In this document: positions 14,096 to 53,158 of the stretch, in pieces
Layout of the letters: each line of letters starts with the position of its first letter
Position numbering within the stretch: the stretch's first letter is position 1
Notes under the pieces: model-generated
What the model was told of the DNA's origin: nothing
Seen by the model: only the letters and a program-made list of their open reading frames with translations
Databases searched by the model: none
Made by a program: the position numbers and the translations under genes
IMG/VR virus record: IMGVR_UViG_3300042887_002597
Location: 46,234-110,233 of that record
DNA: 64,000 nucleotides
Reading direction: 5' to 3' (one strand)
Source of the DNA: a virus
Lineage: Duplodnaviria; Heunggongvirae; Uroviricota; Caudoviricetes

Positions 14096-15745
14096 CTACA
14101 CCCCTCTTCCCACCACACCAGCTGCATAAAGCGCGTTTCCTATTTCTAGAGCCTTTAAATGTCCTTCCGATCCTCTCACCTCGCCACCACCATGATTTGC
14201 TCTCACAAACCAATACACAGCATCGTCTATTGATGTAAAACTATTTTTTTCTTTTTGAATTTTGCTTCCTCCAATTCCATTTAACAAAAACTTAACAGCT
14301 ACAACAGCAGCTGTTGGCACATCGTTAAGTTGGTCTGGGTTACTTACTAGGTCTATGCCAGCAAGTTCACCATATTTTTTATATAACGCTTTGAAAGTAA
14401 CTTGATTAAAACCACGACCTCGATACAACCAACCGTCTCCTGGATTATCGTTCATAGTATTCCAGCTTGGACCTGGGTCTTGTTTATATCCGTATATTAC
14501 GTCGTAAAATTCTACGTTATCTGCTTTTAATGCTGTTAGCTGCGGTTCATCAAAGCGTTTTAATCTAGCCCCAAACAGATGTCTCAATCTCTCATTTGAT
14601 GTGTTACCATATCCATATTCGTTCTTTGGTATGAATCCACACTCTTTTCCAACAACTCCTAATATACCAATTTGCGAAAACGGATTTGTTATACCGGCTT
14701 GTTGCATTGCATTTATTAACACTCGAATATTGTCATCTTTTGTTCCTCCACTTCCTAATGATCCAATATCAAAACCACCACCTCCTCCTACAAATCCGGC
14801 AACATTTAAGTTAATTTCAAATCTAAAGTTAGGATCATATACGCCATCTACTGTAGCCTGTAGCCTTGTAGACTCAAAGTCTTCTACTCTCTGGAATGGT
14901 TTTGGTCTGGTTACCTTTACGTTCCATGTATCCATTCTTTTGCTAGTTGCAACTTCCATTGGAATTATTTGTGTGCTTGTGAGATACACAACAGAGTCCG
15001 TTTCGTTGATTGAAGGTTTTATAAGATAGGACTCGTCAGTTGTTATCTTTTTACTTGCTTGCAGTATCGTTATAGGATCCCCATCTTCTGTAGTTTGTAC
15101 CTTGCTTAGGACATCTGACCCTATGTGCAGGTCGCTATATATATCCTTTACAATAATCTTATCCATCGTACTTGTGAATAAGATGGAACTACCAAACCTT
15201 CCTTCAAGAATTGTATCACCTTCTCTCAGAGAGGTTACTCCATAACTTGAGTTTTGATAATCCTCATATGGTATTTGTAGCTTATCTTGAAATCGAGTAG
15301 CTAATAAAGGCTCATTTACCAGAGCATCTAACAAATCTCTATCAATGTTAAAGGCTGTAGTCGATAAAAACGGCTCTGATCCATATGCAATATTCAGCGA
15401 CTGCTTTACAATAGTTCCGTATGCATACGTCAATCTCGTACCTACTAATACTGGGTATATCATTACTTGCTCCCCTGGTAAAGGTACTTGGTATCTTGAT
15501 CGGTTTGCTGGGAATGCGAACAAACTGACGTTCTTCTCTTCTTTTTTGTAGTCTTCTGGTATTGCTCGAAAGCGTATTGCTCCTACTCCGTACTCGGAGC
15601 TGTAGTATGGAGATGATTCGTCTAAGATTACGTCTAGTACATGCCCAAGCAATATTCTCTCAGAACCCTTCTTACGTGATGATGGATTTGGCTTTGTGTT
15701 TTTAGGCCCTAATACTTCTGATAAACCACTAAATGTACTACCCAT
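14096..15745 (-). CDS. tail-associated lysin paralog 1: conserved N-terminal module + C-terminal GH19-like lysozyme/chitinase domain
   Basis: 549 aa. N-term MGSTFSGLSE and internal REGDTILEGRFG, DGDPITI and YDPNF blocks are shared with the two upstream paralogs. C-term carries GILGVVGKECGF and YRGRGFNQVT, which I recognise as GH19 signatures; near-identical motifs occur in the 28954..29781 endolysin. Confidence 0.7.
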   Translation of the reverse strand: MGSTFSGLSEVLGPKNTKPNPSSRKKGSERILLGHVLDVILDESSPYYSSEYGVGAIRFRAIPEDYKKEEKNVSLFAFPANRSRYQVPLPGEQVMIYPVLVGTRLTYAYGTIVKQSLNIAYGSEPFLSTTAFNIDRDLLDALVNEPLLATRFQDKLQIPYEDYQNSSYGVTSLREGDTILEGRFGSSILFTSTMDKIIVKDIYSDLHIGSDVLSKVQTTEDGDPITILQASKKITTDESYLIKPSINETDSVVYLTSTQIIPMEVATSKRMDTWNVKVTRPKPFQRVEDFESTRLQATVDGVYDPNFRFEINLNVAGFVGGGGGFDIGSLGSGGTKDDNIRVLINAMQQAGITNPFSQIGILGVVGKECGFIPKNEYGYGNTSNERLRHLFGARLKRFDEPQLTALKADNVEFYDVIYGYKQDPGPSWNTMNDNPGDGWLYRGRGFNQVTFKALYKKYGELAGIDLVSNPDQLNDVPTAAVVAVKFLLNGIGGSKIQKEKNSFTSIDDAVYWFVRANHGGGEVRGSEGHLKALEIGNALYAAGVVGRGV

Positions 15746-17371: not shown

Positions 17372-18976
17372 TTACCAAGACATTAAAAGTGTATAAGTGA
17401 ATGCCGGTTGTCCGCTTGCTTCTGCTTGACGCAATACCTCGGCTAATGATGTTGGTGCTGCAAAGACTTGACAGCCAGCACTGTATTGGCCAACGTTTTG
17501 TGTAACACTATTAGCACTAGCTCTGTGCAAGTTCATTCCAAATACTCCACTTGCATTTTGTGGAGTTGCATCAGGTACATCATCTCGATTACGGTCTGTA
17601 TATATGACATATGCAGTTGACTCTCTAAATGCTTTATATTGGCTATTGTGTTGACCTATCTTGTATACGCTATTATACTGACCTGGCTTTAGGATAGCTG
17701 TTCTACTCTGTCCTTCGAAGAAGTTTTCTAAGTAATACTTTCCTGGTACTGTTGTTGCCGGGAAGAACTTGACTTCTCCAGTGTTACTATTAACAACGCC
17801 AACTAAATCTGCAAACTTGTTTTTAGTTTGCACTCCCGAGTTGTTTATGTTAATGTTTGTTACGGATCGTATACCTACGAAGTGTACACCAGTTGGAAGA
17901 CTGTATCCTAGTTCTTGGAACTTTAATTTAATTTCATCAAAAGACTTAGCTTTTGCAGAGGAACCTGGTACACCTGGGTCGCTAACTCCTGTAATATTAC
18001 CCAATCCGTTTGACGCATTAGGATCGTAAGCTAAGCTTTCAAGTCCACTAACATTAACACTTGGTACAAAGTTAGGGTCATAGGTCAGTTCTGGGAAGAA
18101 TGATTGGAATCGTGCTGCAGGATCATCACTTAAACCAAACTTACCTTTTGTTATATTCACACTCCAACTACTCATAGATACACTTGCAGCTAGTTTTATT
18201 GGCACGTTTTGCGACGTAGTTAAGTAGAAGCTTGAATCTTCTACATTAATGTCGTCATCTTCTATCAGATTAGATTCCTGTATTATTTCGTTAACTTCTT
18301 TTCTCCTAACACTAGCTTTCATTATCAACATAGGATCACCATCAGCGCTCTTACCTATATTAGTTATTTGTGTTTCTGGGTTCCATACACCATCCTTTGT
18401 GATCGTATGTGTGAATTTTATTACACCTCCCATCCTACCTTCGAGAATAGAGTCTCCTTCTCTAACACGAGTAAACGATCCTGCTCTACCATTTAGGGCA
18501 TTGTCGCTAAAATCGTTTTTTAACGCAAATCGTTGCGCTTCAATTTCTGGATCGACTGTGATGGCTGGTGCACCTGACGAGTCAAAGGCGTCTTGCAAGA
18601 GTGTTGGATTGATATTGTTTCGTAGAAAGAAAGACGGTGTTACCACATCAAAATAGTAATACCTTCCTAACTTTCTAACAATTAATACTTGCTCTCCAGC
18701 AAAGGGTAGTCTGTAGTTTGCTCTGTCTAATGGCTCTGCTATTAATGTAACGTCTTTCTCCGCTTTGGTACCACTATTTGCTTTTAAGAAACGAATCATC
18801 CCTATGACATAGGGATCCTGTGTTGGGGTTATCTCACTAACTCCAATTGTGAACTTTGAAGTACTCTTTCCAACATCTAATACTTGTCCTATAAAGACCT
18901 CACCATCCTTAAAGGTGTTACTAGGTGCAGCTGCTGCGCCGTAGTACTCGGTTAGGCCTTTAAAGACACTACTCAT
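17372..18976 (-). CDS. tail-associated lysin paralog 3: conserved N-terminal module + C-terminal His/Cys LD-peptidase-like domain
   Basis: 534 aa. N-term MSSVFKGLTE plus REGDSILEGRMG, DGDPMLI and YDPNF blocks. C-terminal 130 aa (YTDRNRDD...GVFGMNLHRAS...SAGCQVF...FTYTLL) aligns by eye to the free 198-aa protein at 29787..30383. Confidence 0.65.
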   Translation of the reverse strand: MSSVFKGLTEYYGAAAAPSNTFKDGEVFIGQVLDVGKSTSKFTIGVSEITPTQDPYVIGMIRFLKANSGTKAEKDVTLIAEPLDRANYRLPFAGEQVLIVRKLGRYYYFDVVTPSFFLRNNINPTLLQDAFDSSGAPAITVDPEIEAQRFALKNDFSDNALNGRAGSFTRVREGDSILEGRMGGVIKFTHTITKDGVWNPETQITNIGKSADGDPMLIMKASVRRKEVNEIIQESNLIEDDDINVEDSSFYLTTSQNVPIKLAASVSMSSWSVNITKGKFGLSDDPAARFQSFFPELTYDPNFVPSVNVSGLESLAYDPNASNGLGNITGVSDPGVPGSSAKAKSFDEIKLKFQELGYSLPTGVHFVGIRSVTNININNSGVQTKNKFADLVGVVNSNTGEVKFFPATTVPGKYYLENFFEGQSRTAILKPGQYNSVYKIGQHNSQYKAFRESTAYVIYTDRNRDDVPDATPQNASGVFGMNLHRASANSVTQNVGQYSAGCQVFAAPTSLAEVLRQAEASGQPAFTYTLLMSW

Positions 18977-24135: not shown

Positions 24136-24591
24136 TTATTTTTTAATTAGATAGAATATGGCACCACCCAAAGCTAAATCGCCAATTCCAAGCCACATGG
24201 CAGTCTTTTTCCAACGAGCTTTGCGATTAATCTCATCACTCAATTCCTTTTTAGTGAGTTGATGCAATCCCCATTCCATCTCATACTTAGTCTTGTATTC
24301 ATTAGCTAAGCTGGTCATCTCTCCAAACTTAACATAAAGGGTGTCGTATGCCTTACGCTCTAGTATAGTCTGCCTATCGCAGTTGATCTGATAGTCAAGT
24401 AGGCGTGCATTTTCTTTTTTAAGTCCCTCGCTTTGTTTTAGGAGTTGTAGTAGAGCCACTTCTTGAGTGCGCACAAAGAACACACCAGTATCACCGTTGT
24501 ATACTATACGCTTAGGGGATAGGGATGGCTGACCAAGCGCTATCAAGCTGCTCAGTACTAAAGTTGCTAATATTGCTAACGTCTTGTGCAT
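24136..24591 (-). CDS. secreted/membrane-anchored coiled-coil protein
   Basis: 151 aa. N-terminal signal peptide MHKTLAILATLVLSSLIALG, central coiled coil, C-terminal TM AMWLGIGDLALGGAIFYLI. Confidence 0.55.
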   Translation of the reverse strand: MHKTLAILATLVLSSLIALGQPSLSPKRIVYNGDTGVFFVRTQEVALLQLLKQSEGLKKENARLLDYQINCDRQTILERKAYDTLYVKFGEMTSLANEYKTKYEMEWGLHQLTKKELSDEINRKARWKKTAMWLGIGDLALGGAIFYLIKK

Positions 24592-24844
24592 TTTGTATTC
24601 TTATTGTTACTATGTCTGTTTTTATATTCGCCTGTGCGCTATCGTAGTCGTGTCGTGCATCTAGTAATTGAGCGTTAAGTTGCTCTACAACACATTGCAA
24701 GCTATCGATACGATTGTCCACTGGTGGCGCTGGTATAGGCCTGTTTATATGCCTATGTTGTGCATAGATTACTACTAATAAGATTAGCACTATAACCCAA
24801 GGCAGTGCATACATTCGGTATTTCTTAAAAAAAGTTTGCATCAT
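24512..24844 (-). CDS. small membrane protein
   Basis: 110 aa, N-terminal TM ALPWVIVLILLVVIYA; overlaps the downstream gene. Confidence 0.45.
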   Translation of the reverse strand: MMQTFFKKYRMYALPWVIVLILLVVIYAQHRHINRPIPAPPVDNRIDSLQCVVEQLNAQLLDARHDYDSAQANIKTDIVTIRIQNAQDVSNISNFSTEQLDSAWSAIPIP

Positions 24845-24858
24845 TTTATATAAATATG

Positions 24859-25515
24859 TTAACTGTTGCTCTTTTCTGATGCATACTTAACCCCCATAAT
24901 AGTACCTACTATACTAAACGAGTTGGTTAGCAATATACCAAACATGTTTGACCATGCTGAGCTTATTATTGTAGTGTCATAGTTCATGACCATAGCAAAG
25001 ACAAACATACCAGTGGTAGCAACACCGACGCCTAAGATAATATATAATGCTACCCTAACGATGTTGTTTATCAACTCAAACTGAGTCTTTTTCTGCATTA
25101 GATCCAAATCATTTTCGGCAACTAACTTAGCATTCTCAGCAACCCTTAACGCTTCACGCAAATCTATATCCATCTTCTCATTCTCTTCCTTCCATTCCAA
25201 CAACTCTTTATTCTGACACTCAATTTGTGCTTTAGAAGTCTCCATATCAGCTAAGGAAGCTTGCAGCTCTTGCATTAGCTTCTCATTCTGCTCTTGAGCT
25301 TCTGTAAGTTCTGTGTTTTGTGTTTGTATACGCTTAGTGATTTCCAAACGCTTACGTCTACTCTCCTTATCTCTATCAGCACATATCTTGAGATACTCAG
25401 CAAACTCAGTATCATCCTCAGGATCAATTAGCTTAAGGATATTGCCCTCAAGGCATATATTCTTTGTCTTGTATACGTTTAGTAACTGTTCTTTTGTAAC
25501 CTTTCCTACTATCAT
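24859..25515 (-). CDS. coiled-coil protein with C-terminal double TM
   Basis: 218 aa. Long Glu/Lys coiled coil, then two hydrophobic helices at the C-terminus. Confidence 0.55.
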   Translation of the reverse strand: MIVGKVTKEQLLNVYKTKNICLEGNILKLIDPEDDTEFAEYLKICADRDKESRRKRLEITKRIQTQNTELTEAQEQNEKLMQELQASLADMETSKAQIECQNKELLEWKEENEKMDIDLREALRVAENAKLVAENDLDLMQKKTQFELINNIVRVALYIILGVGVATTGMFVFAMVMNYDTTIISSAWSNMFGILLTNSFSIVGTIMGVKYASEKSNS

Positions 25516-25967
25516 TATCTATACACTTTAAACGATGCTGTTCTAGATTCGTATGCTGAGTAGTCTTTTCTAAACTCCTCGAGTCGCGGTTCAATATCGT
25601 CAGACTTTATGATCCAGAACTGCGCTCCGGCCTGTACCGCCTTAGCCTGCTCTTCTGCTTCGTTGCTTGAAGATATGATTCCAATCACTACATGATTACC
25701 ATACATAAAGTTAATTCGTCGAATCAACTCTATACCGTCAAATGACGATCCTATAATGTTCAAATCAACGAATACACACTTTGGTTTATCAGCAATATCG
25801 CCAGTCTCAAACCATCTTTTAAACCTCTTTTCTGCTTCATCAGCGCTGTTAATTGCCTCTAAAGACAGTGTTATGTCTAATAAGCTACAAGCATCTTCAA
25901 ACACTAAGTGAAACAAATCTTCATCGTCTACTAGCAATATAGACTCAATCATATTTAGGTCAATCAT
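25515..25967 (-). CDS. stand-alone response regulator receiver (CheY-like) domain protein
   Basis: 150 aa. N-term acidic pair LLVDDEDL, putative phospho-acceptor Asp in VFVDLNI, conserved S/T in IGIISSS and Lys in WIIKSD. No output domain. Confidence 0.65.
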   Translation of the reverse strand: MIDLNMIESILLVDDEDLFHLVFEDACSLLDITLSLEAINSADEAEKRFKRWFETGDIADKPKCVFVDLNIIGSSFDGIELIRRINFMYGNHVVIGIISSSNEAEEQAKAVQAGAQFWIIKSDDIEPRLEEFRKDYSAYESRTASFKVYR

Positions 25968-27270
25968 TTTTAATTTTAATTTTCATTTTAGTTCCTATAC
26001 TACTTCTTTCGCAACTTAATTTAAAACCGTGCTCCTCTAATATAGCAACGCATATATTCAAACCAAGACCTTTCTCGTCTTCTGTGATATTAGCCTTCTT
26101 TGAATATTTTGCTAAATGCTTTTCAAATTGTTTTTGTGTAAATCCTCGACCATTGTCCTCGACCACAATGCAATCCTCTTGCTTATATATACTAACCTTT
26201 TTAGTTTCGCTATCATTATAAGTTAATCCATTTTTAATTAAATTTTCAATAGCATTACAAAATAGCGTTTCATTTACATCTAACTCACCTAAGTCCTCTA
26301 TTTCTACTTGAGAGCTGTAGGAGTTTGGTGCTATATAACTGTGGATTAGGTTCTTTAGGTCTACCTTCACTTTATTTAAAACAACGTCTTGTTTTACGAG
26401 ATTGGTAAATTCGTATACGCTTTTATATACTCTTTGGGTATGATTTAAGCCTTCCTTAACCATTTTTAATGGACCTTCGATCTTTAGTCTTTGAATATCC
26501 TCAACAGTCAATCTCTTCTCTAGAGAATTTATACCTCTAGGCATGTACGTGTTAATACCTGAGTGCATGTCGTGACGAATGATTCTAGCAGCGTGTTCTA
26601 AGTAGCTATTCTTCTTAGCTATATCATTTAACTGCTCTTCAATCTCCACATCTTGTATTTGTATTCTTCTTCTCTGCAATACTACTGCTAATACTAAACC
26701 AAACAACAACACAACCCCAATAGCCCAGTAGAGGTATCTCTTTAACACCTCTTTTTGTTTTTCTAAATCTGTTTTTTCGACTATTAAATCATCAGTTTCT
26801 AAAGTTAAACCAATGATGTTCTTTTCTTTTCCTAAGGCGTTAATTGTATTTTCTTTTGATTTAATTAATTCATCATTTCTAATTGCTTGTGCTAATAACG
26901 AATCTCGCTCAGCTGTTAATTTATTAAGTTTATTATCAATTTGAGCTAATACATTTTTTAAATCTTCTTTTGGTAAATCAGTATATGATTTAGGTAAATC
27001 TGTTAAGAATTGAACATCTTGGGCGATATTAGCTAAATCAGCCTCTGACAATTGTGTCATATCAACTGGTTCTGGCTCTGGTTCTGGCTCAATCCAAGTA
27101 GTGACAATTTCTTGTATGTCCATTGCTGCGACTTGAGTGGTATCAGCATCAGCTCTCCAAGAAGCATCAATTCCATTAACTAAGGTGTCACTGTAATCTA
27201 CATCTTGTGAATATAAGTTAGTAGATGCAAATAGGATTGCAAATAGTAGTAGTGTGCGTCTCATTATCAT
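25960..27270 (-). CDS. membrane-anchored sensor histidine kinase
   Basis: 436 aa. Signal peptide, extracytoplasmic acidic/coiled-coil region, TM (YWAIGVVLLFGLVLAVVL), then H-box-like RIIRHDMHSGINTY and HATPase_c N/G1/G2 boxes (NLIKNGLTYND, DNGRGF, GLGLNICVAILEEHGF). The C-terminal half is paralogous to 27872..28951. Confidence 0.7.
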   Translation of the reverse strand: MIMRRTLLLFAILFASTNLYSQDVDYSDTLVNGIDASWRADADTTQVAAMDIQEIVTTWIEPEPEPEPVDMTQLSEADLANIAQDVQFLTDLPKSYTDLPKEDLKNVLAQIDNKLNKLTAERDSLLAQAIRNDELIKSKENTINALGKEKNIIGLTLETDDLIVEKTDLEKQKEVLKRYLYWAIGVVLLFGLVLAVVLQRRRIQIQDVEIEEQLNDIAKKNSYLEHAARIIRHDMHSGINTYMPRGINSLEKRLTVEDIQRLKIEGPLKMVKEGLNHTQRVYKSVYEFTNLVKQDVVLNKVKVDLKNLIHSYIAPNSYSSQVEIEDLGELDVNETLFCNAIENLIKNGLTYNDSETKKVSIYKQEDCIVVEDNGRGFTQKQFEKHLAKYSKKANITEDEKGLGLNICVAILEEHGFKLSCERSSIGTKMKIKIKND

Positions 27271-27875
27271 TTTGATTCTTCTAGTAAACTTTTATTTTTC
27301 CAAATCCAATTTTCACGACTGCGAAGAAATCCTTCGAAGTTTATAAATTTCAAAGTACTAAAGTAACTAACAGGTGAAGGAAACTTCTTATCATGTTCTT
27401 CTCTGAGCTTCACATACTCTGTATATTCTTGCTTAGTCATCTTCTCAAATACAAACACACTACCATCCTCATAACTATACAGATTGTAATCGTCTAGATT
27501 TACAAAATACACTTTATTGTAAGGAGGTAGCATATATAGAAAGCTACCATGCATAGCCATTTCACGAATAGTCAAATTCAATTCATCTGCCCACTTATAG
27601 GTAGTATCAGCAACATATTGGATACTATCAAGGACCCTAGAATTCCCAGCAGCCATCTTTAAGCTATCAACAACCTTATTCAACAATGCAATCTTTCTAG
27701 TTTGTTCTCGAATAATTCTTTTTTGCGTTTCGATAGCTTTATTGATATCAATTGATTGCTTAATAGACAAGATAACAACAGAATCCCCCTTATAGATTGT
27801 CTGAATTGGGTACTTAGTCTGACTAAGCCCAAACACAGATGTTAATAAAAAACCTAATAATATTAGTGTTCTCAT
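27267..27875 (-). CDS. secreted protein of unknown function (within the two-component cluster)
   Basis: 202 aa with signal peptide MRTLILLGFLLTSVFGLSQ. Translationally coupled on both sides to the kinases. Confidence 0.6.
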   Translation of the reverse strand: MRTLILLGFLLTSVFGLSQTKYPIQTIYKGDSVVILSIKQSIDINKAIETQKRIIREQTRKIALLNKVVDSLKMAAGNSRVLDSIQYVADTTYKWADELNLTIREMAMHGSFLYMLPPYNKVYFVNLDDYNLYSYEDGSVFVFEKMTKQEYTEYVKLREEHDKKFPSPVSYFSTLKFINFEGFLRSRENWIWKNKSLLEESK

Positions 27876-28951
27876 TTTATTTTGATTTTCATTTTAGTTC
27901 CTACGTCATTTTTTTCGCAACTAATATGAAACCCATGCTCCTGCAGTATAGCAACGCATATATTTAAACCTAACCCAGAACCAGACTCTTTCTGACCTTC
28001 CTTTCGTGTATACGGCTTAGAGAGGTGCTCAAAATCTTGTTGAGTCAATCCTCTACCATTATCTTGGATAACAAGCGTATCACTATCCTCTATATAGATG
28101 GTTACCATCTTAGTATCCGAATCATTATATTTTAAACCATTACGAATTAGATTATCAATAGCTGTACAGAATAGCGCTTCGTTAACATCTACAGTAGGTA
28201 GGTCTTTAATTACCACTTGACTTTTGTATGAGGTTGAGGCTAGGTAGGATTCCAGTATATGCTTTAGATCGCATAACTCCTTTTCTAGCACAACATCTTT
28301 CTTAACTAAATTAGTGAATTCATAAACGCCTTTATAGACTTTTTGAGCGTGTGATAATCCTTCTTTGATCATTTTAAGAGGAGCTTCTATCTTTAATTTC
28401 TGGATATCCTCCGACTTAAGTCTTCTCTCTAACGAACTAATACCTCTTGGTATGTATGTGTTAATACCCGAATGCATGTCATGTCTAAGGATTTTAGCTG
28501 CATGCTCTAGGTACATATTCTTTCGATTCAGCTCCATAGACTGCTTCATCAATGCAGTAACATCTTGTCTAATGGATGAAAATCCCTTCAACTTTCCACA
28601 CTTATCAAAACGAGCTCTAATGTAGGTATCTACCCAATAATAGTCACCCTCTTTAGTTTTATTGCAGACAATGTCATTCCATATCTCACCCCTCAACACC
28701 GTCTCATACATATTACCCCAATAGCCATCAGGTTGCGTTCCAGAGTTAACTATGGAGTGATCCTTACCCCTAACCTCATCCAACGTCCATCCAGAAACCC
28801 TCTCAAACTTATCGTTAACATAAACTATCTTACCATATTCGTCGGTTATAGAGATAATAGCCGCCTTATCGATAAACTTATCAGCTTCGTTTAGTTCAGA
28901 ACTAAATAAAGCTCTATAAAAAGAAGAGACTATGTTCTTTAGGTAGTTCAT
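27872..28951 (-). CDS. cytoplasmic PAS-domain sensor histidine kinase
   Basis: 359 aa. N-terminal PAS-like region (ITDEYGKIVYVNDKFERVSGWTLDEVRGKDHSIV), H-box KILRHDMHSGINTYIPRG, HATPase_c boxes NLIRNGLKYND / DNGRGL / GSGLGLNICVAILQEHGF. Confidence 0.7.
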   Translation of the reverse strand: MNYLKNIVSSFYRALFSSELNEADKFIDKAAIISITDEYGKIVYVNDKFERVSGWTLDEVRGKDHSIVNSGTQPDGYWGNMYETVLRGEIWNDIVCNKTKEGDYYWVDTYIRARFDKCGKLKGFSSIRQDVTALMKQSMELNRKNMYLEHAAKILRHDMHSGINTYIPRGISSLERRLKSEDIQKLKIEAPLKMIKEGLSHAQKVYKGVYEFTNLVKKDVVLEKELCDLKHILESYLASTSYKSQVVIKDLPTVDVNEALFCTAIDNLIRNGLKYNDSDTKMVTIYIEDSDTLVIQDNGRGLTQQDFEHLSKPYTRKEGQKESGSGLGLNICVAILQEHGFHISCEKNDVGTKMKIKIK

Positions 28952-28953
28952 TG

Positions 28954-29781
28954 TTATTTCAACAAACTATAATACTCCTTAAAGTGCTTTATTCTATCAG
29001 GTAGTCCAATAGTGCCACCATTCACTCGTTTAGTCACAGCCGTCACAGTAGCATCGTCAGCTCCCTTATCGCAAATAGACCAAAGGTTGTTGGAGTTAAA
29101 GAAGAATGCTGCAGATGCAAGTGGATACTTGGTAGCTACTAAGTCTGGATCGTTTACCGTATCTTCGCCAATGAATTTAGCAAAGTTTGTATAGTTTGAC
29201 TTACCGGTTAACTGAATATAACCACGTCCACGATACTTGTATCCTTCACCGGTAGACTCATCACCATTACCCATTCTTGATCCATAAACACGAGATGCGA
29301 TCTTTGCTGGTTGCTTAGCATATGAGTTAGCCAAATCACCAGGGAAGTACTTGCCAAATATCTTTTTAAGGCCGTCTGCAGAGTAGTTTAAGTTCTCTTG
29401 GATTGCTTTAAACCCAGCTGATTCATGTCCACATTGAGCTAAGAAATGAGCTAAACGTAGTGGGTTCGTGATGTTAAACTTAGCTGCAGTGTCTGGAATT
29501 TGAGCAATTACTGCATCAGGGATGTGCCCTTTTAGCGCATCTAACTTAAATGCTGATGGTGGAATTGCTACAGGAGCAGTTGCCTGTACAGGAGTTGCTG
29601 TACCGAACATCTTACCCCACGTACCAGGTCCTACGATACCATCTGCCGTTAGACCATTAGCTGCCTGCCATTCTTTAACCTTAGCCTCAGTGCCAGGTCC
29701 AAATACGCCATCCGCTCCTAAGCCTAATAGCGTTTGAAGTTGCTTAACTTCTTCTCCTTTCGATCCGTTCTTTAATAACAT
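28954..29781 (-). CDS. endolysin: peptidoglycan-binding domain + GH19-family lysozyme
   Basis: 275 aa. N-terminal PG_binding_1-like repeat (LKNGSKGEEVKQLQTLLG...DGVFGPGT). Catalytic region AHFLAQCGHESAGF ... YRGRGYIQLTGKSNY is a classic GH19 signature. Confidence 0.8.
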   Translation of the reverse strand: MLLKNGSKGEEVKQLQTLLGLGADGVFGPGTEAKVKEWQAANGLTADGIVGPGTWGKMFGTATPVQATAPVAIPPSAFKLDALKGHIPDAVIAQIPDTAAKFNITNPLRLAHFLAQCGHESAGFKAIQENLNYSADGLKKIFGKYFPGDLANSYAKQPAKIASRVYGSRMGNGDESTGEGYKYRGRGYIQLTGKSNYTNFAKFIGEDTVNDPDLVATKYPLASAAFFFNSNNLWSICDKGADDATVTAVTKRVNGGTIGLPDRIKHFKEYYSLLK

Positions 29782-29786
29782 AAGCT

Positions 29787-30383
29787 TTATTTAATGTCGC
29801 TTGACTCGATAAGCGTGTAAGTAAAAGAGTTTCCGTGAATATCACGAGACTTACGACAGATAGTCATAAATGCTTCAAAGTCTGCTGCCTTCTTAAACAC
29901 TTGACAGCCTTCTGACCAGTTCTCAACGTAAGTAGAGTCTGCACCAGCCTTGTGTATATTGATTCCGAATACACCCTCTTGGATTTTATTCTCGTCATAA
30001 GTCATGTCACGATTAGCGTCGCGATAAACCTTAACTGGCTTATTCTGACCTAATGCTTCGTACTTACCTTGGTGTAATCTGATGATATGCGAACTGCGAT
30101 ACTGTCCTTCTACAAGACGAGCAACACCAGCTGCATTATGATACTCCTTAACTCCCTTCTTACCAGGATCGGTTGTAGCAGCCCAGCAGTGGAATTTCCA
30201 CACACCATTCTCTTTATATGAAATCGTTAGCAAATCATCAAACACATTAGTTACAGTCTGACCTGTCGCAGAATTGCGAATACCTACGATATTAACGTCG
30301 TAACCCTTGTTGTTAGCGTCTTCAAACCAAACGTATCCTTTGGATTTGACAGCTGCTTCTACCTGTTCTCTTGTATAGCTCAT
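29787..30383 (-). CDS. putative peptidoglycan peptidase with His...Cys motif (YkuD/LD-peptidase-like)
   Basis: 198 aa. GINIHKAG ... SEGCQVF motif. Homologous by eye to the C-terminal domain of tail paralog 3. Sits next to the endolysin. The fold assignment is inference. Confidence 0.6.
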   Translation of the reverse strand: MSYTREQVEAAVKSKGYVWFEDANNKGYDVNIVGIRNSATGQTVTNVFDDLLTISYKENGVWKFHCWAATTDPGKKGVKEYHNAAGVARLVEGQYRSSHIIRLHQGKYEALGQNKPVKVYRDANRDMTYDENKIQEGVFGINIHKAGADSTYVENWSEGCQVFKKAADFEAFMTICRKSRDIHGNSFTYTLIESSDIK

Positions 30384-31601: not shown

Positions 31602-32390
31602 TTATGGTTGAATCAACACAGGTGCTTTACCATCTGTAATGATAACACGATTGGTACTCCAACGAAGTGCATCAATATAACGCTCCATTAAAATCTCCTT
31701 AGTCAAACCTTTCGACTTAATAGTATTAGTCTCCTGTTCAATCTGAGCTTTCTCTTTTTGCATACGAGCTACTTCTAATTCATTACGAACCTGCTCTGCC
31801 ATCTGCTTCTGATTGTTACGCAGTTCGATAGCATTAGCCATAGAAGAAGGTGGTGTTAGTCCAGATGTAAGGCTATTAAGCTTAAAGTACTTAGACTCAA
31901 ACTCAGACTTCAAACGCTCCTGTACTTTGTTTTCGAATGCATTTAGATTATTCATCAAAGAGTCTGTTGTAAAGTTACGAGCTTCTTCACGAAAGGCATT
32001 TATCACAATAGGATTCAGAATCATGTTCTCGACATTATCCATGTTCTCATCAAAGTTAGTGTGCTTATAGTTGAATACAATATCAATACCCTTACCACGA
32101 ATAGCTTCATAGGTGAAAGATGGATCGACAGTAAACGTACCAGCATCCTTAGCTGTAATGCTTACTTGTGTAGGGTCAGCTGCTTGTTCGTACATTGGCA
32201 CTTGATACAACTCAGTACCAGGTCCTAAGATACCTTGACTACCAGTCACGACTGTAAAGTCGGCCATACCATTACGGCCATAGTTCTGCATAAGTACACC
32301 TTCAAAGTTAGGTTGAACTGGGTTACACGCTGTGAATAAAGTAGCTACAAACATAAGAGCTACAAGGGGGAATAAGATTGATTTTTTCAT
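31602..32390 (-). CDS. lipoprotein
   Basis: 262 aa. Signal peptide MKKSILFPLVALMFVATLFTAC with lipobox Cys. Confidence 0.65.
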   Translation of the reverse strand: MKKSILFPLVALMFVATLFTACNPVQPNFEGVLMQNYGRNGMADFTVVTGSQGILGPGTELYQVPMYEQAADPTQVSITAKDAGTFTVDPSFTYEAIRGKGIDIVFNYKHTNFDENMDNVENMILNPIVINAFREEARNFTTDSLMNNLNAFENKVQERLKSEFESKYFKLNSLTSGLTPPSSMANAIELRNNQKQMAEQVRNELEVARMQKEKAQIEQETNTIKSKGLTKEILMERYIDALRWSTNRVIITDGKAPVLIQP

Positions 32391-33854: not shown

Positions 33855-34152
33855 GTTCTTTCGCCATCTTCTTGAATATCTTATCGTCAGAAAATGCGTT
33901 GTTTGACTTCCTAATCATGTTGACAAACCACGCGACAGACTTGGCCTGTTGCCAAGCCTCTCGCACTGAATTTGCTGGCGGATACAAGAGCTCTGCCGGT
34001 ACGACAGACTCTGCATCTTCACCATGTACTACGGAATAGTGACCCGCACTATTCATCGCAGTCCGAGCTCCGGGAAATCGCTTCTCAATGAAGCGTTTCA
34101 TCTTCTGAAATTCCTTCTGCTCTGGGGATAATACAATCTTCTGCTTACGCAT
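33838..34152 (-). CDS. hypothetical protein
   Basis: 104-aa ORF. Confidence 0.55.
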   Translation of the reverse strand: MRKQKIVLSPEQKEFQKMKRFIEKRFPGARTAMNSAGHYSVVHGEDAESVVPAELLYPPANSVREAWQQAKSVAWFVNMIRKSNNAFSDDKIFKKMAKERGNEE

Positions 34153-35336
34153 TAGAACGGCATTTTAGAAGAAGTGTAATCCTCATTCATCAAGGTCTCA
34201 TCAGAGCCATCAGTCACGTATTTCTGCACTAACTGCTTAACAAACGTACGCTCAGACTGCAAGCCACCCTCCGCAGAATACAAAGGATAGATAGCTACCT
34301 CAGCACACTCTTCAAGCGTGAATCCGTCAGACATAAGACCCGCCATCTCCACTACAGAACGTGTAGAGATAGGAGTCTGAATGCGCGGAGAATCCGTACG
34401 CATCTCAGTACGAGTAGCAGACGCAATCTCTGCAAGATTCATAGCAATAGCTCTCGATAAAGTAGGCTGTACCTGGCAGATAAGAGTAGCCTCTTGAGCC
34501 GGCTCTAAGAAAGGAATCTCAGCAATAACGAAGCGGTCTAACAACGCACGGTCCATCACACGAACTGCGGTATACTCACTACCAATGTTAGCAGTACCGA
34601 TGAAACATACACCCTCTGCAACCTTAACAGTCGGAGAGTTTACAGCCTCGTCAAGACGCAAGTAACGCTGGTTAGGATCAAGTACAGTCATAAGGATGTT
34701 CCAAGCCTCTGGATGTGCGCGAGATACCTCGTCAAGCAAAATCACAGTATTCGGAGTCTTCAGAGCCTTAACAAAAGCAGACTCGTTAAAGAACGTACCT
34801 GCATCCTTAGAGAAGTGCGTGTTACCAATCAACGCACCACGCGGATCTTGCGTAGCTCCTAAGTTGATATAGAAAATCTCACGCTCCATAGCCTTCGCTG
34901 CAGCGAACGCAGTCTGCGACTTACCACAACCGGTAGGACCCGTCAATAGCATGTTAGTACCGCGCAATACAGAGCGACATATAAACTTCCACGTCAAATC
35001 CTCGCAGAACAAGGTCTCAGGACGTTTCTCTACGCACGTGTTAAGGAAAGCCATAACAGTGTTCTCTGCTGCAGGAACTGCAGTCTCATTAACTGATTTT
35101 TTACTCATAGTCTTAGTATTAGGTGAAACCTGGCGCCATTTGCCGGATTCGTTAGACAACCACATCCCAGCCTTGAAAGCCTTAGATAGCGTCATATACG
35201 TGATTTCACTGGTAATGTCAGCGCCGTTAATAGTGTTAAAGGCTCTTACTGATTCGCCACGTTTTCCAGCGGCTAAACAAACTTCTGCGATAATTGCGGT
35301 GTTCATAGTGTTTTGTGTTTTTGTGTTATTTTTCAT
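34152..35336 (-). CDS. MoxR/CobS-like AAA+ ATPase
   Basis: 394 aa. Walker A LLTGPTGCGKSQTA, Walker B VILLDEVSRAHPE, arginine-finger-like region. AAA_5 type, as found in phage CobS-like proteins. Confidence 0.7.
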   Translation of the reverse strand: MKNNTKTQNTMNTAIIAEVCLAAGKRGESVRAFNTINGADITSEITYMTLSKAFKAGMWLSNESGKWRQVSPNTKTMSKKSVNETAVPAAENTVMAFLNTCVEKRPETLFCEDLTWKFICRSVLRGTNMLLTGPTGCGKSQTAFAAAKAMEREIFYINLGATQDPRGALIGNTHFSKDAGTFFNESAFVKALKTPNTVILLDEVSRAHPEAWNILMTVLDPNQRYLRLDEAVNSPTVKVAEGVCFIGTANIGSEYTAVRVMDRALLDRFVIAEIPFLEPAQEATLICQVQPTLSRAIAMNLAEIASATRTEMRTDSPRIQTPISTRSVVEMAGLMSDGFTLEECAEVAIYPLYSAEGGLQSERTFVKQLVQKYVTDGSDETLMNEDYTSSKMPF

Positions 35337-39868: not shown

Positions 39869-42001
39869 CTATGCTTTCGCAGATGGTGCGAGGAACTTGC
39901 TGTTCAATGTTCTTGCTATCCCTAGCATGTCCTGCGCAGTTACTGCGAAGCTGTTCTTCACTCCGTACATCCCTGAGAAGTAATCCTTCACTACTGGCTT
40001 ACGGTTGTTATCCCCGTATGACCCGTACTCTATGAAGAAGCTTATTATCTTCATCCCTAACTGGTTCTCTAAGAGCTGCATGTACTTGCGGGTATGCTTA
40101 GATGCTGCTTCCCCGTAGTAATTGCCTGTTCCACCTGGAGCTCCGTCAGAGAAGTTAATGAAGTAGCTGTCGCAGTTAGTGCTGCTTGGCACGAACATGT
40201 TACGCTTGTATTGCGCTTCGAAGCATAGTCCCTCCGGAGTCACGCTACAAGTGCTGGTTAGCGCTAAGGCTTGCATAAGCTGTTGTAGCGGGTTAATGCG
40301 GCTGTCGTAAACAGTGATGATTACTGGGCTGCTTAGCTTATCGTTAGCAGTATGTCTAAGGCTTACTTGTACGTGCATGTTAGTGCAGTGTCTAGCAGCC
40401 TTGGCAATTGCGATGGTCATAGACGATGTCTGTTCCCACTTGTCTCCTCCCATACTACCACTTGCATCCAGCGATAAGTGCAGGTTTACACCCTTATACT
40501 TATCTACGTGGATCTGCTTGAAGATGTTCTCTACTCCGTATCCTGCGTGGGCTATACGCTTAGCATCTAGACCACCAGTTCTCAAGCGGTTTGTAACCAA
40601 CTCTCTCTCCTCGTTTCTAAGCTGCAACTTACGTCCCAACATAGCTCCCTGGTTGAATCCCGCTTGTACTGCCTTGTCCTTACCTGCACTTACTCCTCTG
40701 TAGAAGTAAGAGCCTATTGCTTCGTTCAAGATATGCGCGTACACACGTTGTCTATCCTCAGGTACAGTGGAGCTTAGAAGCGCCATGTATTCCATGAAGA
40801 TACGGCCGTTCTTAGTAAGGTCGTAGGTTACTGCAGTAAAGCTCTGGATACTATCATCGCCTCCAACCTGCTGTATTTCTGCAGCAGCTTGCGTTAAGCT
40901 TTGTACCTTTCTCTGCAGGTTCTTAGTACCTTCCTTTCTCTCACCAACTCTGCCCTCTCCTAGATCCTTCTGTTTCTGCAGCTGTTCGAGAGCCTCTCGC
41001 ATCTGCGCATTAGTAAGGTCTTCTAGAGTCTCTCCTTCTCCTTCCCCACTATCTTCGCCAGACTCATCATCCTCGCCATCTTCCCCACCAGAATTGCCGT
41101 CTCCACCTTCTTCCTCATCATCCTCTTCACCGCCATTACCCTGGCCTTTGCCACCCTTGTCCTTAGACTGCTTATCCTGCGGATCTCCGTCCTTCTCCTC
41201 TTGCTCCTGCAGTTCCTCCGCCTTAGCGATAGCTTGTTCGATCAAGTCATGCACTTCCTGTGCAAGATCTATAACATCCTGGGTAGTCTTCAAACGTGCA
41301 ATGTTCGCAGTGTCTATAAGATCCAAGACTTGCTTAAGCCCAGGCATAGCGTTAGGATCCGAAGCTGGGTTCAGACAGTTGATGATACGCATCTCCCACG
41401 ACTCCCACTGCGAAGCATCACGGAACTTGCGACTCTTCAGAGCCTTAGTAATCGCATCAGCTACGAAGTACGTATCGTACAACTTGTGATAGTATGCGCG
41501 ATACCCGGGGGAAGTAGAGAACACGAACTGGTCAATACGTCTGTCCTCAATCCAGTTAATAAGCGGGAATAAGGTCTGCCACTTCATATGACCAGTGTCC
41601 ATGCGTGTTTGCGTAGTAGCATCAAAGTCAGTCATAATGCAGTGTGCAGACTCGTGTAGAGCCAGCGCTACGTGCAGGTCAAAGTTAGCATCCTTAATGT
41701 CCGCAGATAACGAGATGGTCTTGCCATCCGTATAGCTCTGGTTTCCCTGGAAGACTAGCTTGATATCCTTCTTAGTCAGGATCTTTGCGAAGTTCCCGAT
41801 GGCACGGTGATAACCCGCTAATTTAATAGCTTTGATCACATCACTGGTACCCTTGGAACCTGCACCAAGTCCGGAGAACTTATCTGATGCACCCCAGCTC
41901 TTGTCCATCCAGAAACTGCTATAATTGCGGGTTGTATCGTACTTAGACTTCGCAGTCTTTGCGTGTTTCCCGACGATCGATTTAATGCTTGCGTTTTTCA
42001 T
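39869..42001 (-). CDS. CobT-like protein: N-terminal HExxH motif, acidic Gly/Glu/Asp linker, C-terminal von Willebrand A (MIDAS) domain
   Basis: 710 aa. LHESAHC (HExxH); about 60-aa poly-acidic stretch GEEDDEEEGGDGNSGGEDGEDDESGEDSGEGEGE; MIDAS motif HLSLDASGSMGG. This architecture partners MoxR/CobS AAA ATPases. Confidence 0.65.
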   Translation of the reverse strand: MKNASIKSIVGKHAKTAKSKYDTTRNYSSFWMDKSWGASDKFSGLGAGSKGTSDVIKAIKLAGYHRAIGNFAKILTKKDIKLVFQGNQSYTDGKTISLSADIKDANFDLHVALALHESAHCIMTDFDATTQTRMDTGHMKWQTLFPLINWIEDRRIDQFVFSTSPGYRAYYHKLYDTYFVADAITKALKSRKFRDASQWESWEMRIINCLNPASDPNAMPGLKQVLDLIDTANIARLKTTQDVIDLAQEVHDLIEQAIAKAEELQEQEEKDGDPQDKQSKDKGGKGQGNGGEEDDEEEGGDGNSGGEDGEDDESGEDSGEGEGETLEDLTNAQMREALEQLQKQKDLGEGRVGERKEGTKNLQRKVQSLTQAAAEIQQVGGDDSIQSFTAVTYDLTKNGRIFMEYMALLSSTVPEDRQRVYAHILNEAIGSYFYRGVSAGKDKAVQAGFNQGAMLGRKLQLRNEERELVTNRLRTGGLDAKRIAHAGYGVENIFKQIHVDKYKGVNLHLSLDASGSMGGDKWEQTSSMTIAIAKAARHCTNMHVQVSLRHTANDKLSSPVIITVYDSRINPLQQLMQALALTSTCSVTPEGLCFEAQYKRNMFVPSSTNCDSYFINFSDGAPGGTGNYYGEAASKHTRKYMQLLENQLGMKIISFFIEYGSYGDNNRKPVVKDYFSGMYGVKNSFAVTAQDMLGIARTLNSKFLAPSAKA

Positions 42002-46091: not shown

Positions 46092-46354
46092 TTAGCTACA
46101 TCGTCTGCACTGCAGTGTCCTAAGACTTCATCATGCTTCTCCTCGAACTCATACCAGGTTCCATTAGCATCCCAGATAGCAATCTCTGCTGTAGTGCATT
46201 GTGTCTTGGACTCCTTGTTCTTGTTTGCACAGTAGTTGCCCATACCGAACTGAACGCTAATGGTATTGCCGTTACTGAACTTCATAGTGAATCCAGATGG
46301 GACTAGCGTCTGCAGTTCCTGCATGGATTTAGGGTGTTTGTTTATCTTTATCAT
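46040..46354 (-). CDS. hypothetical protein
   Basis: 104-aa ORF. Confidence 0.5.
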   Translation of the reverse strand: MIKINKHPKSMQELQTLVPSGFTMKFSNGNTISVQFGMGNYCANKNKESKTQCTTAEIAIWDANGTWYEFEEKHDEVLGHCSADDVAKWIQFASTNTIAPKIGL

Positions 46355-52312: not shown

Positions 52313-52360
52313 ATTAGTTCCTCCTATTTGTTAATATGTCAAAGAGCGCATCCACAATTG

Positions 52361-52434
52361 TGCGCCTTCCTGGGATCGAACCAGGTACCTACTGATTATG
52401 AGTCAGTTGCTCTAACCTAATGAGCTAAAGGCGC
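52361..52434 (-). tRNA. tRNA-Met/Ile2 (anticodon CAT)
   Basis: Folded by hand on the minus strand: acceptor GCGCCTT/AAGGCGC, D-arm GCTC-ATTAGGTTA-GAGC, anticodon arm ACTGA-CTCATAA-TCAGT, T-arm CCTGG-TTCGATC-CCAGG, discriminator A. Confidence 0.8.
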
Positions 52435-52435
52435 T

Positions 52436-52530
52436 ACTGTACTCAAGGAAGGAATTGAACCTTCACGAAGATCCTCGCTGGAAAGGCTATAACAGTTTGG
52501 ATAACTGCTTATACCTTAAGCAATCCTTTT
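52436..52530 (-). tRNA. aberrant tRNA-like element (T-arm GAAGG-TTCAATT-CCTTC present; rest does not fold canonically)
   Basis: Good T-arm and a possible acceptor GCTTAAG/CTTGAGT with 2 G-U pairs, but no clean D or anticodon arm by hand. About 82-90 nt, so possibly a type II tRNA, a pseudo-tRNA or an interrupted tRNA. Confidence 0.25.
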
Positions 52531-52811
52531 ATAGATCTTCTCGTTTGCTCCCCTTAGCGTCTACCATCGACCAGGGCCTCCTGATCCTTTCGCCACTTGA
52601 GTATGTTGCCCCACCTGAGATTAGGGTGAGTAGTTGTATCGGTTTGTTTCTTTCAAAAAACCTGCTGGGCATCCCCGTTAAAAAAAGTCAACACTCTTGG
52701 GAGGAGTTGTGTAGTTCTCCTTTGTTCCCACTATGTCCCACTCGCGCCGTAGACATTCTGCGAAATCATTGTTTAAGTCTTGATTCAAAGACTCTGAGTA
52801 TCTCTTACTCA

Positions 52812-52911
52812 TTGCAATCAGGATAGGATTCGAACCTATATTAACGCAAGTAGATTGGTACTGACCTTTCGGTTACTCCCGTTTCGCTGTGCTACCCAAT
52901 TACACCACCTG
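52812..52911 (-). tRNA. aberrant or intron-containing tRNA-like element (about 100 nt)
   Basis: Acceptor AGTCAGG/CCTGATT, D-arm GTGT-AATTGGGTA-GCAC and T-arm ATAGG-TTCGAAT-CCTAT fold. About 27 extra nt sit where the anticodon arm and variable region should be, and I could not identify an anticodon. Confidence 0.3.
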
Positions 52912-52929
52912 ACTGTGTTTTATTTTCTG

Positions 52930-53001
52930 TAGTCGATACGGGAATCGAACCCGTGTTACCAGAATGAAAATCTGAGGTCCTGACCCCTAGACGAATCGAC
53001 C
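52930..53001 (-). tRNA. tRNA-Glu (anticodon TTC)
   Basis: Acceptor GGTCGAT/ATCGACT (G-U at 1:72), D-arm GTCT-AGGGGTCA-GGAC, anticodon arm TCAGA-TTTTCAT-TCTGG, T-arm ACGGG-TTCGATT-CCCGT. 72 nt. Confidence 0.75.
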
Positions 53002-53007
53002 TTATAG

Positions 53008-53079
53008 AGCTTCCTGTAGGAATCGAACCCACTTATCCTGAGTACAAATCAGGTGCATCACCTTTTATGCTTAAGAAGC
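53008..53079 (-). tRNA. tRNA-Thr (anticodon TGT)
   Basis: Acceptor GCTTCTT/AGGAAGC, D-arm GCAT-AAAAGGTG-ATGC, anticodon arm CCTGA-TTTGTAC-TCAGG, T-arm GTGGG-TTCGATT-CCTAC. 72 nt. Confidence 0.8.
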
Positions 53080-53084
53080 TTTAG

Positions 53085-53158
53085 TTGCGGGAGCAGGAAT
53101 CGAACCTGCGTCATTTGGCTTATGAGACCAAGCTGGTACCTTCTCCAGTCCACCCCGC
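53085..53158 (-). tRNA. second CAT-anticodon tRNA (Met or lysidine-Ile) with non-canonical acceptor stem
   Basis: D-arm CTGG-AGAAGGTA-CCAG, anticodon arm TTGGT-CTCATAA-GCCAA and T-arm GCAGG-TTCGATT-CCTGC are clean. The acceptor GCGGGG(T)/TCCCGC pairs 6 bp with one extra or bulged nt. Confidence 0.55.

Follow-up and report, generated by a model that had tools for sequence, protein, structure and literature searches.

Why should a tailed phage carry, beside the genes with which it opens its host, a set of genes for sensing and phosphotransfer? The question is raised by a stretch of Caudoviricetes DNA of 64,000 nucleotides (nt), referred to here as the window (IMG/VR record IMGVR_UViG_3300042887_002597, positions 46,234 to 110,233). 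An original prediction, made from the letters of the window, had located five minus-strand open reading frames there and taken them for a phage-encoded two-component signalling cluster; all five are present at those positions, and the interpretation built on them is only partly supported. The cluster very probably encodes a functional phage two-component system, as judged from its predicted proteins. The kinds of domain are known and their arrangement is new, namely a phage module in a lysis cassette whose receiver-only response regulator is paired with an uncharacterised membrane protein. We tentatively propose, with slightly less than even confidence, that the module forms a phage-borne phosphorelay within the lysis cassette, which would control lysis without acting on transcription. 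In order of transcription, the five genes are:

27872..28951, minus strand: HK_PAS, predicted cytoplasmic histidine kinase; single PAS domain of the Aer/MmoS type at residues 33-133, HATPase_c at E = 3.5e-15
27267..27875, minus strand: Sec202, predicted secreted protein with an N-terminal signal peptide
25960..27270, minus strand: HK_TM, predicted membrane histidine kinase with HATPase_c (E = 5e-12), a signal peptide and one transmembrane (TM) segment
25515..25967, minus strand: RR, predicted receiver-only response regulator (Response_reg, 32.7 bits, cutoff 30.2)
24859..25515, minus strand: CC_TM, predicted coiled-coil membrane protein with an N-domain, a coiled coil and a C-terminal TM hairpin

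Neighbouring genes of the cluster are joined by 4-nt ATGA overlaps or separated by gaps of a few bases; the HK_PAS/Sec202 and Sec202/HK_TM junctions are ATGA overlaps and RR and CC_TM overlap in TAATG.

Predicted components of the proposed phosphorelay

The domains that the original prediction had expected are largely in place, that is, PAS and HATPase_c in HK_PAS, HATPase_c in HK_TM and Response_reg in RR (Pfam). Pfam HisKA, also expected, went unmatched at E <= 0.1; nonetheless, the H-box RHDMHSGI is invariant and occurs in every homologue examined. Among 130 homologues of HK_PAS, H157 and D158 are invariant, and the N-box (N267, N271, Y275), the G1 box (D297, G299, G301) and the G2 box (G324, G326, G328) are invariant or nearly so. 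With an H-box His and a HATPase_c domain bearing N, G1 and G2 boxes, HK_PAS has the predicted features of class I (HisKA-type) kinases. Moreover, its phmmer alignment to the HK853 structure (2c2a) begins at query H157 and at chain position 29, which, in the numbering of that construct, would be the phospho-acceptor His260 of HK853, and the kinase domain was also aligned to CpxA. In HK_TM, the first Gly of the G2 box is substituted (EKGLGL).

The catalytic halves of HK_PAS and HK_TM, which had been described as near-identical, are 65% identical over 232 amino acids (aa), a figure that does not bear out near-identity; the two kinases are clear paralogues, and their sensor halves differ. Hydropathy gives no hydrophobic segment in HK_PAS, as expected of a soluble protein. 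HK_TM has a signal peptide ending in LYS and followed by QDV, about 155 extracytoplasmic residues of acidic, coiled-coil character, one TM segment at about residues 180-198 (hydropathy), the residues RRR and then the kinase core. In kinases of this class, the dimerisation and histidine phosphotransfer (DHp) helix after the phospho-acceptor His sets partner specificity, as established by specificity-rewiring studies. This helix reads HDMHSGINTY(I/M)PRG..SLE(R/K)R in both kinase families and, because it is almost identical in the two, both kinases should phosphorylate the same single RR. Conservation of the kinase core is high (identity 0.8-0.96 around the H-box) and the periplasmic part of HK_TM is variable (0.24-0.6) beside its conserved core, which is the pattern expected if sensory surfaces track varying signals while the output stays fixed.

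The PAS domain of HK_PAS finds its best solved relatives in 3ewk (E = 1e-29), the Aer PAS domain and NifL. According to the Aer structure paper, 3EWK is MmoS of Methylococcus, the flavin-pocket residues H53, N85 and R115 of Aer correspond to H132, N164 and R195 of MmoS, the His and Arg of this pocket are uncommon among flavin PAS domains, and Aer-type PAS domains monitor respiration (PMC9668731). All three residues are present in the window, where H65, N97 and R128 of HK_PAS align with the triad, and a triad-bearing PAS domain is found in 126 of the 128 homologues with a detectable PAS match, either as a single domain, as in the window, or ahead of a second PAS domain that lacks the triad. The latter layout, found in many homologues, is shared with the tandem PAS-A/PAS-B of MmoS. 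The domain is thus like those of Aer, MmoS and NifL (PDB 8DIK, 3EWK and 2GJ3) in sequence and in the retained His/Asn/Arg triad, and differs in that it feeds into a short kinase core, encoded by a phage together with a receiver-only RR; partners and role are likewise different. It is probably a flavin-based sensor of redox or energy state.

RR had been described as a regulator without an output domain, and this holds: it has 145-150 aa, extends about 25 residues past the receiver fold and gave no match to an output or DNA-binding domain. Hydropathy again gives no hydrophobic segment, in keeping with a soluble protein. The residues D14 and D15, the phospho-acceptor D68, S99-S101 and K121 show CheY-like spacing and are invariant in 11 sequences from contigs with a guanine-cytosine (GC) content of 0.39-0.67, over which RR is 60-93% identical, and the stretch past the receiver fold forms a conserved tail (EPRLEEFxxDYxxYxxRTxxFKVY). 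Since most homologues begin at Met6 of the window's protein, the start probably lies at 25952 (25515-25952, 145 aa). Taken together, the catalytic residues of kinase and receiver all appear intact.

CC_TM would be a new protein family of about 5,600 homologous sequence clusters, each unannotated or spuriously named, and it matched no Pfam, NCBIfam or PHROG family. Hydropathy gives about 150 cytoplasmic residues followed by a C-terminal TM hairpin, and in the AlphaFold2 (AF2) model (pLDDT 80), a small helical cap is followed by a continuous helix from residue 36 to 176 that runs into TM1, and then by a tight turn and TM2 at 182-217. By the positive-inside rule the hairpin is oriented N-in/C-in, and the cytoplasmic domain is atypically large for a holin. 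Conservation lies in the N-domain (about residues 1-70) and in the TM hairpin (WSNMFGILLTNSFSIVGTIMGVKY), and the length of the coiled coil varies. In one cellular locus (L019; compared loci are designated L plus a number), the N-domain and coiled coil are fused to HisKA and HATPase_c in place of the hairpin, which marks the N-domain as a separable, swappable input module sited right after the RR gene; this is our main ground for proposing that the N-domain receives the signal of RR. That CC_TM is the direct output of RR may be considered possible, at somewhat under even confidence.

Phage origin and distribution of the module

The original prediction itself had raised the alternative of a host-derived island, or of a mis-assembly, with no true place in the phage. 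The GC content of the cluster (0.32-0.37) is slightly under the window mean and cellular homologues of the module exist, both of which would suit such an origin. Against it, the GC content shows no abrupt break at the cluster and stays within the range of the window (0.32-0.49), and an identical PAS-kinase protein with the same neighbours and gene order occurs in two JGI samples and in an independent Logan SRA assembly; the identical protein is also present on a 131-kb contig. Moreover, the window has baseplate wedge and hub genes, four tRNAs and coding on one strand throughout, and the module is found in at least 521 viral loci of IMG/VR. This alternative is effectively refuted, and the module is real and phage-intrinsic. 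By a baseplate protein, the closest cultured relatives of the phage are Microcystis phage Mel-JY01 (49%) and the Flavobacterium 'immuto' phages (44%). Signal peptides of the SPase I type are followed by Gln in all five cases in the window, including Sec202, and in all 28 displayed N-termini of HK_TM and Sec202 homologues. An N-terminal Gln exposed by signal-peptide cleavage is specific to Bacteroidetes (PMC5837995), and the host of the phage is probably a member of the Bacteroidota. This 'Q-rule' may serve as a cheap predictor of host phylum for uncultured phages.

A search from the kinase side retrieved 13 IMG/VR loci in which the gene order is kept, and a search from the CC_TM side at least 521 confirmed loci in IMG/VR and at least 488 in metagenomes, on contigs of up to 322 kb. 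No homologue of the module was found in 50,697 deposited phage genomes (megablast and blastn with the region; tblastn with HK_PAS, RR and CC_TM). The view that such sets are rare in phages thus holds for deposited genomes and fails for metagenomic phages, in which the module is common, its carriers being large uncultured phages of a very widespread group. No published description of it was found, the freshwater-phage genome paper (PMC6802176) included, and a survey of jumbo phages discusses only a different receiver variant that is not linked to a kinase (PMC7824862). PHROGs holds uncharacterised families of phage kinase-like and receiver-like proteins (phrog_857, phrog_10912 and phrog_731).

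The five genes had been taken as the unit. The conserved unit is instead a trio of HK_PAS, RR and CC_TM, which is kept across loci of IMG/VR, metagenomes and metagenome-assembled genomes (MAGs), and RR is the immediate upstream neighbour of CC_TM in nearly all loci with room for it. Where the module is complete and flanked by 3 kb or more on both sides (39 non-redundant loci), its architectures are as follows:

PAS kinase, RR, CC_TM: 25/39 loci
five-gene form: 11/39 loci
trio with a gene inserted between kinase and RR (patatin where identified): 2/39 loci
other architecture: 1/39 loci

Sec202 never occurs without HK_TM in the tabulated loci, and the two constitute an optional additional input. 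The flanks of the module differ between phages and are hypervariable. The operon itself is also invaded, as a homing endonuclease of 240 aa (phrog_314, E = 8e-22), a selfish element, lies between HK_TM and RR in L033 (3518-4240) and likewise in L034, L107 and L125.

A kinase family exclusive to phages was considered and is ruled out by two cellular Bacteroidota loci. The first, L022, is a MAG contig of 967 kb in which ordinary metabolic genes surround a PAS kinase (47% identical), an RR (60% identical) and a protein with four PAS domains, and CC_TM is absent. The second, L019 (5709-9090), carries a three-PAS kinase, an RR and the fusion of CC_TM N-domain and coiled coil to HisKA and HATPase_c described above, and is judged cellular Bacteroidota because a neighbouring protein of 1,775 aa has a type IX secretion system (T9SS) sorting domain. 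The genome scan returned 8 loci in 185,579 species genomes, a lower bound since exact H-box motifs were required. The remaining MAG matches are labelled with several phyla. At least two of them, L018 and L020, seem viral, the former with a GyrB-type topoisomerase and the latter with large flanking proteins without a Pfam match, and L016 is mixed and ambiguous in gene content, its trio being flanked by a PrkA/DUF444/SpoVR operon. The RRs of L020 (GC 0.67, binned as Gemmatimonadota) and L016 (GC 0.49, binned as Bdellovibrionota) are 64-72% identical, and the GC content of L020 indicates that the trio has spread beyond low-GC phages. A likely history is that a cellular Bacteroidota kinase-RR pair was captured and that the output of the third component was changed to a membrane hairpin.

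Linkage to lysis and competing explanations

The cluster had been placed upstream of the endolysin and the peptidase. By the direction of transcription, both lysis enzymes lie upstream of the cluster, and the order is putative peptidase, GH19 endolysin, the five cluster genes and two further envelope proteins. A position between the lysis enzymes and HPRT is correct, except that these two membrane-protein genes intervene before HPRT. The four genes are:

29787..30383, minus strand: putative cell-wall peptidase, 198 aa, first gene of the lysis block (phrog_3000, E = 2.5e-37; phrog_33083 'endolysin', E = 2e-11)
28954..29781, minus strand: endolysin (Pfam PG_binding_1, E = 5e-14, and Glyco_hydro_19, E = 1e-10; phrog_181, E = 5e-68)
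24512..24844, minus strand: 110-aa protein with an N-terminal TM segment or signal anchor at residues 11-29, a holin-like or spanin-like candidate
24136..24591, minus strand: predicted envelope protein of 151 aa with hydrophobic segments at residues 1-19 (signal peptide ending in ALG and followed by QPS) and 131-149 (C-terminal TM segment)

The endolysin gene lies 2 nt upstream of HK_PAS, and the putative peptidase has no Pfam match. The 110-aa gene starts 14 nt past CC_TM and overlaps the 151-aa gene by 80 nt in a different frame; homologues of the former follow the module in L008/L026 and L104, and the 151-aa gene co-occurs in L008 and L104. The 110-aa protein matched no family in Pfam, PHROG or PADLOC. 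As a side observation, the overlap of the two genes resembles that of overlapped spanin gene pairs, and the second protein is without a lipobox Cys.

Comparison across loci strengthens the case for the proposed link with lysis. Among 121 non-redundant loci, homologues of the window's GH19 and phrog_3000 enzymes make up 51 of the 475 genes within three genes of the module, vs 10 of the 1090 genes that lie at a greater distance in those loci (odds ratio 13, Fisher p = 2e-18), a statistic that is uncorrected for shared ancestry. The arrangements of lysin and module are of at least nine kinds. GH19 stands directly after CC_TM on the same strand in 16 non-redundant loci, and directly upstream and divergent in 12, an arrangement found for the phrog_3000 gene in 9; phrog_3000 peptidase homologues flank the module in 10 non-redundant loci, mostly divergently. 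In L051, CC_TM is followed by a lysin of a third family (phrog_894, E = 1e-35). In addition, a small TM protein comes immediately after CC_TM in 40 of 112 loci, vs 16% among other flank genes; in L068, the order is CC_TM, a 2-TM protein and GH19, and a small 1-TM protein intervenes in other loci. In L041 and L048, membrane proteins intervene and the lysin comes only 4-5 genes downstream, and a limit of three genes hence undercounts the linkage. The module does not always neighbour lysis genes: about 40% of well-flanked loci carry no GH19 or phrog_3000 homologue within three genes. A functional tie of the module to lysis or envelope disruption is judged about as probable as its absence, with a slight lean in its favour.

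From this linkage and the predicted proteins, the following route may be envisaged. HK_PAS would read the redox or respiratory state of the host from the cytoplasm through a PAS domain that binds flavin adenine dinucleotide (FAD), and HK_TM and Sec202, where present, could supply an optional and fast-evolving second input from the periplasm, so that both kinases would set the phosphorylation level of the single RR. Phosphorylated RR would work by protein contact and not on DNA, its likeliest target being the cytoplasmic N-domain of CC_TM, whose long helix would convey the signal into the TM hairpin. A change in the hairpin might then advance or delay permeabilisation by the adjacent holin-like proteins and, hence, the release of the GH19 endolysin. 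The binding of FAD and all steps from the phosphorylation of RR onward, the effect on lysis timing included, are what we infer. Such control of lysis is plausible but unproven. Its fullest form is a phosphorelay lysis clock, in which RR would gate CC_TM, CC_TM would set holin triggering, and the inputs would be host respiration and, in some lineages, a periplasmic cue; this is rather doubtful. If true, this would be the first case, in any virus, of a sensory pathway dedicated to the timing of lysis.

Several points weigh against control of lysis by the module. Besides the loci without a nearby lysin and the uncorrected ancestry in the enrichment statistic, some neighbours are unrelated to lysis (a GyrB-type topoisomerase, Hsp70, a homing endonuclease), and no lysis-category PHROG or Pfam match to a known holin or antiholin family was obtained for CC_TM, the 110-aa and 151-aa proteins or the 2-TM proteins, a weak test of holin homology because holins are very diverse. 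The contact between RR and CC_TM is proposed on the basis of gene adjacency and domain swapping, and FAD binding by HK_PAS on that of three residues and homology. Moreover, neither L019 nor L022 has a clear lysis context, and the ancestral function was therefore probably not lysis. A seemingly conserved downstream neighbour of about 600 aa was dropped, as the proteins are unrelated (a GyrB-type topoisomerase, Hsp70 and one without a match).

Several of these observations would also fit a reprogramming of the host unrelated to lysis, in which the phage kinases and RR would phosphorylate host regulators or drain phosphate from host kinases, thereby tuning respiration or metabolism. CC_TM would then merely anchor the relay near the electron-transport chain, and the proximity of lysis genes would reflect a permissive hot spot for insertion in a late operon. 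The cellular kinase and RR relatives of L022, set among metabolic genes without CC_TM, speak for this possibility, as do the hypervariable flanks with their homing endonucleases, the well-flanked loci without a lysin and the monitoring of respiration by Aer-type PAS domains. Nevertheless, phages invariably pair RR with CC_TM, as would be expected of a self-contained pathway, and the identity of RR, 60-93% over such a range of GC content, suggests a partner encoded by the phage and not the diverse partners of different hosts. A passive hot spot also explains poorly the occurrence of three lysin families, a phospholipase and holin-like proteins on either side and strand of the module. Host reprogramming is considered unlikely.

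The periplasmic branch brings in a different alternative, namely control of superinfection or of conflict between phages. Sec202, which would be a second new protein family (164 clusters), matched nothing in Pfam, NCBIfam, PHROG or PADLOC; its AF2 model is poor (pLDDT 54) and its C-terminal half is highly variable (identity 0.08-0.3). A by-eye likeness of Sec202 to the 151-aa downstream protein reached only 12% probability in hhalign and was dropped. In some loci, the branch gives way to another enzyme that attacks the envelope: in L009 (9317-10309), a patatin-like phospholipase of 330 aa lies between PAS kinase and RR in place of Sec202 and HK_TM, and the variant recurs in L062-L064, L067, L077, L138 and L139. 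This protein matches Pfam Patatin (E = 5e-20) and PDLC00758, an effector model of the CBASS type (E = 2.5e-70), so that the signalling and lysis module of such phages appears to have taken up a membrane-degrading effector of the defence type.

HK_TM and Sec202 might accordingly detect a second phage or damage to the envelope, upon which CC_TM, or the patatin in some variants, would block entry or trigger early cell death, by analogy with T4 lysis inhibition or abortive-infection effectors. The fast evolution of Sec202 and of the periplasmic part of HK_TM is what conflict interfaces would show, the patatin matches CBASS phospholipase effectors, and the membrane location of CC_TM fits a role in exclusion. 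However, the commonest form of the module, the trio, has no periplasmic branch, and a comparison of the five window proteins with the PADLOC defence models gave no credible match to a known family, CC_TM yielding only weak coiled-coil noise. Moreover, T4 lysis inhibition is itself a form of lysis timing, which makes this alternative partly a sub-case of lysis control. As a separate explanation, it is improbable. The quorum-sensing role suggested in the original prediction is unsupported, no result bearing on it.

Precedents and other features of the window

When to lyse is a classic problem for phages, and theory holds that the best lysis time depends on the condition and density of the host. 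To our knowledge, the known means of lysis timing, that is, holin clocks, antiholins and T4 lysis inhibition, involve no dedicated sensory pathway. If the wiring proposed here is true, it would provide a concrete mechanism by which a virus measures the energy state of its host to time its exit. Even without a link to lysis, a two-component system that is complete in itself, that would act at the membrane instead of on transcription and that is conserved on contigs with GC contents from 0.39 to 0.67 would be a useful new case of signalling.

In T4 lysis inhibition, holin T acts with the antiholins RI, a periplasmic sensor, and RIII, a cytoplasmic regulator, and the signal adjusts holin triggering. 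The module resembles this system in having a periplasm-facing and a cytoplasmic input beside holin-like and endolysin genes, and differs in that the antiholins bind directly, without a kinase or a phosphorylation step. No sequence similarity was found between the module proteins and annotated families of lysis regulators.

Among single-domain regulators, CheY acts on the flagellar switch and DivK on kinases, and DivK-type regulators exert allosteric control on a kinase. RR is like both in being a single domain with all phospho-acceptor residues, and the resemblance to DivK extends to L019, in which the gene after RR encodes a histidine kinase with the CC_TM N-domain. The difference lies in the proposed phage target, which would be a coiled-coil, TM-hairpin protein of a family without a described member.

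LytS is a multi-pass membrane kinase and LytR carries a LytTR DNA-binding domain; domain searches found neither a LytTR nor a LytS-type domain in the five cluster proteins. In Firmicutes, LytSR controls the holin/antiholin-like proteins LrgAB and CidAB (PMC5717393, PMC2996381). The likeness, a two-component system linked to holin-like membrane proteins and murein-hydrolase activity, is functional only, as homology between the components goes no further than the generic folds of kinase and receiver. Furthermore, LytSR is cellular and transcriptional, whereas the system described here is phage-encoded, its RR lacks a DNA-binding domain and its main kinase is a soluble PAS protein. A phage that encodes a histidine-kinase homologue of a bacterial signalling system is known in phiCDHM1 of Clostridioides difficile, which carries AgrB, AgrD and AgrC without a response regulator and is concerned with peptide quorum sensing (PMC7790227). 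Its AgrC is the sole documented precedent of a phage kinase in the literature searched. The module differs from it in having its own RR and a dedicated membrane partner, no peptide-signal genes and an unrelated sequence. The assertion that the known arbitrium and holin-antiholin systems do not use histidine kinases had overlooked this AgrC (PMC7790227), as well as the action of the cellular LytSR on holin-like proteins (PMC5717393).

As to transcription of the region, a sigma-70 scan for promoters gave no excess over shuffled sequences, and the Bacteroidota promoter motif TTTG..TAnnTTTG gave 1 match vs 1.9 expected; both scans are uninformative. The sole strong terminator of the region, at 31577-31558, lies upstream of the entire lysis block and comes right after the gene for a Band_7/SPFH lipoprotein of 262 aa with the lipobox LFTAC (31602-32390; phrog_200, E = 3e-35; Pfam PF01145), which is situated just upstream of that block. 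The tRNA genes of the window are grouped together:

52360-53159, minus strand: tRNA genes Met(CAT) x2, Glu(TTC) and Thr(TGT)

Between 34000 and 42000, the GC content of the window is 0.43-0.49 vs about 0.38 elsewhere, and this stretch is possibly a separately acquired block. It includes an AAA ATPase (34152-35336), whose top PHROG match, phrog_249, is annotated 'porphyrin biosynthesis', and a 710-aa protein (39869-42001) with weak PHROG matches to a peptidase and to a 'cobalamin biosynthesis protein'. Finally, two proteins of the tail and baseplate region end in domains related to the lysis enzymes, one (14096-15745) in a phrog_181 (GH19-type) domain at residues 343-486 and the other (17372-18976) in a phrog_3000 domain at residues 366-530, and both are probably cell-wall hydrolases of the virion, paralogues of the endolysin and the peptidase, respectively.

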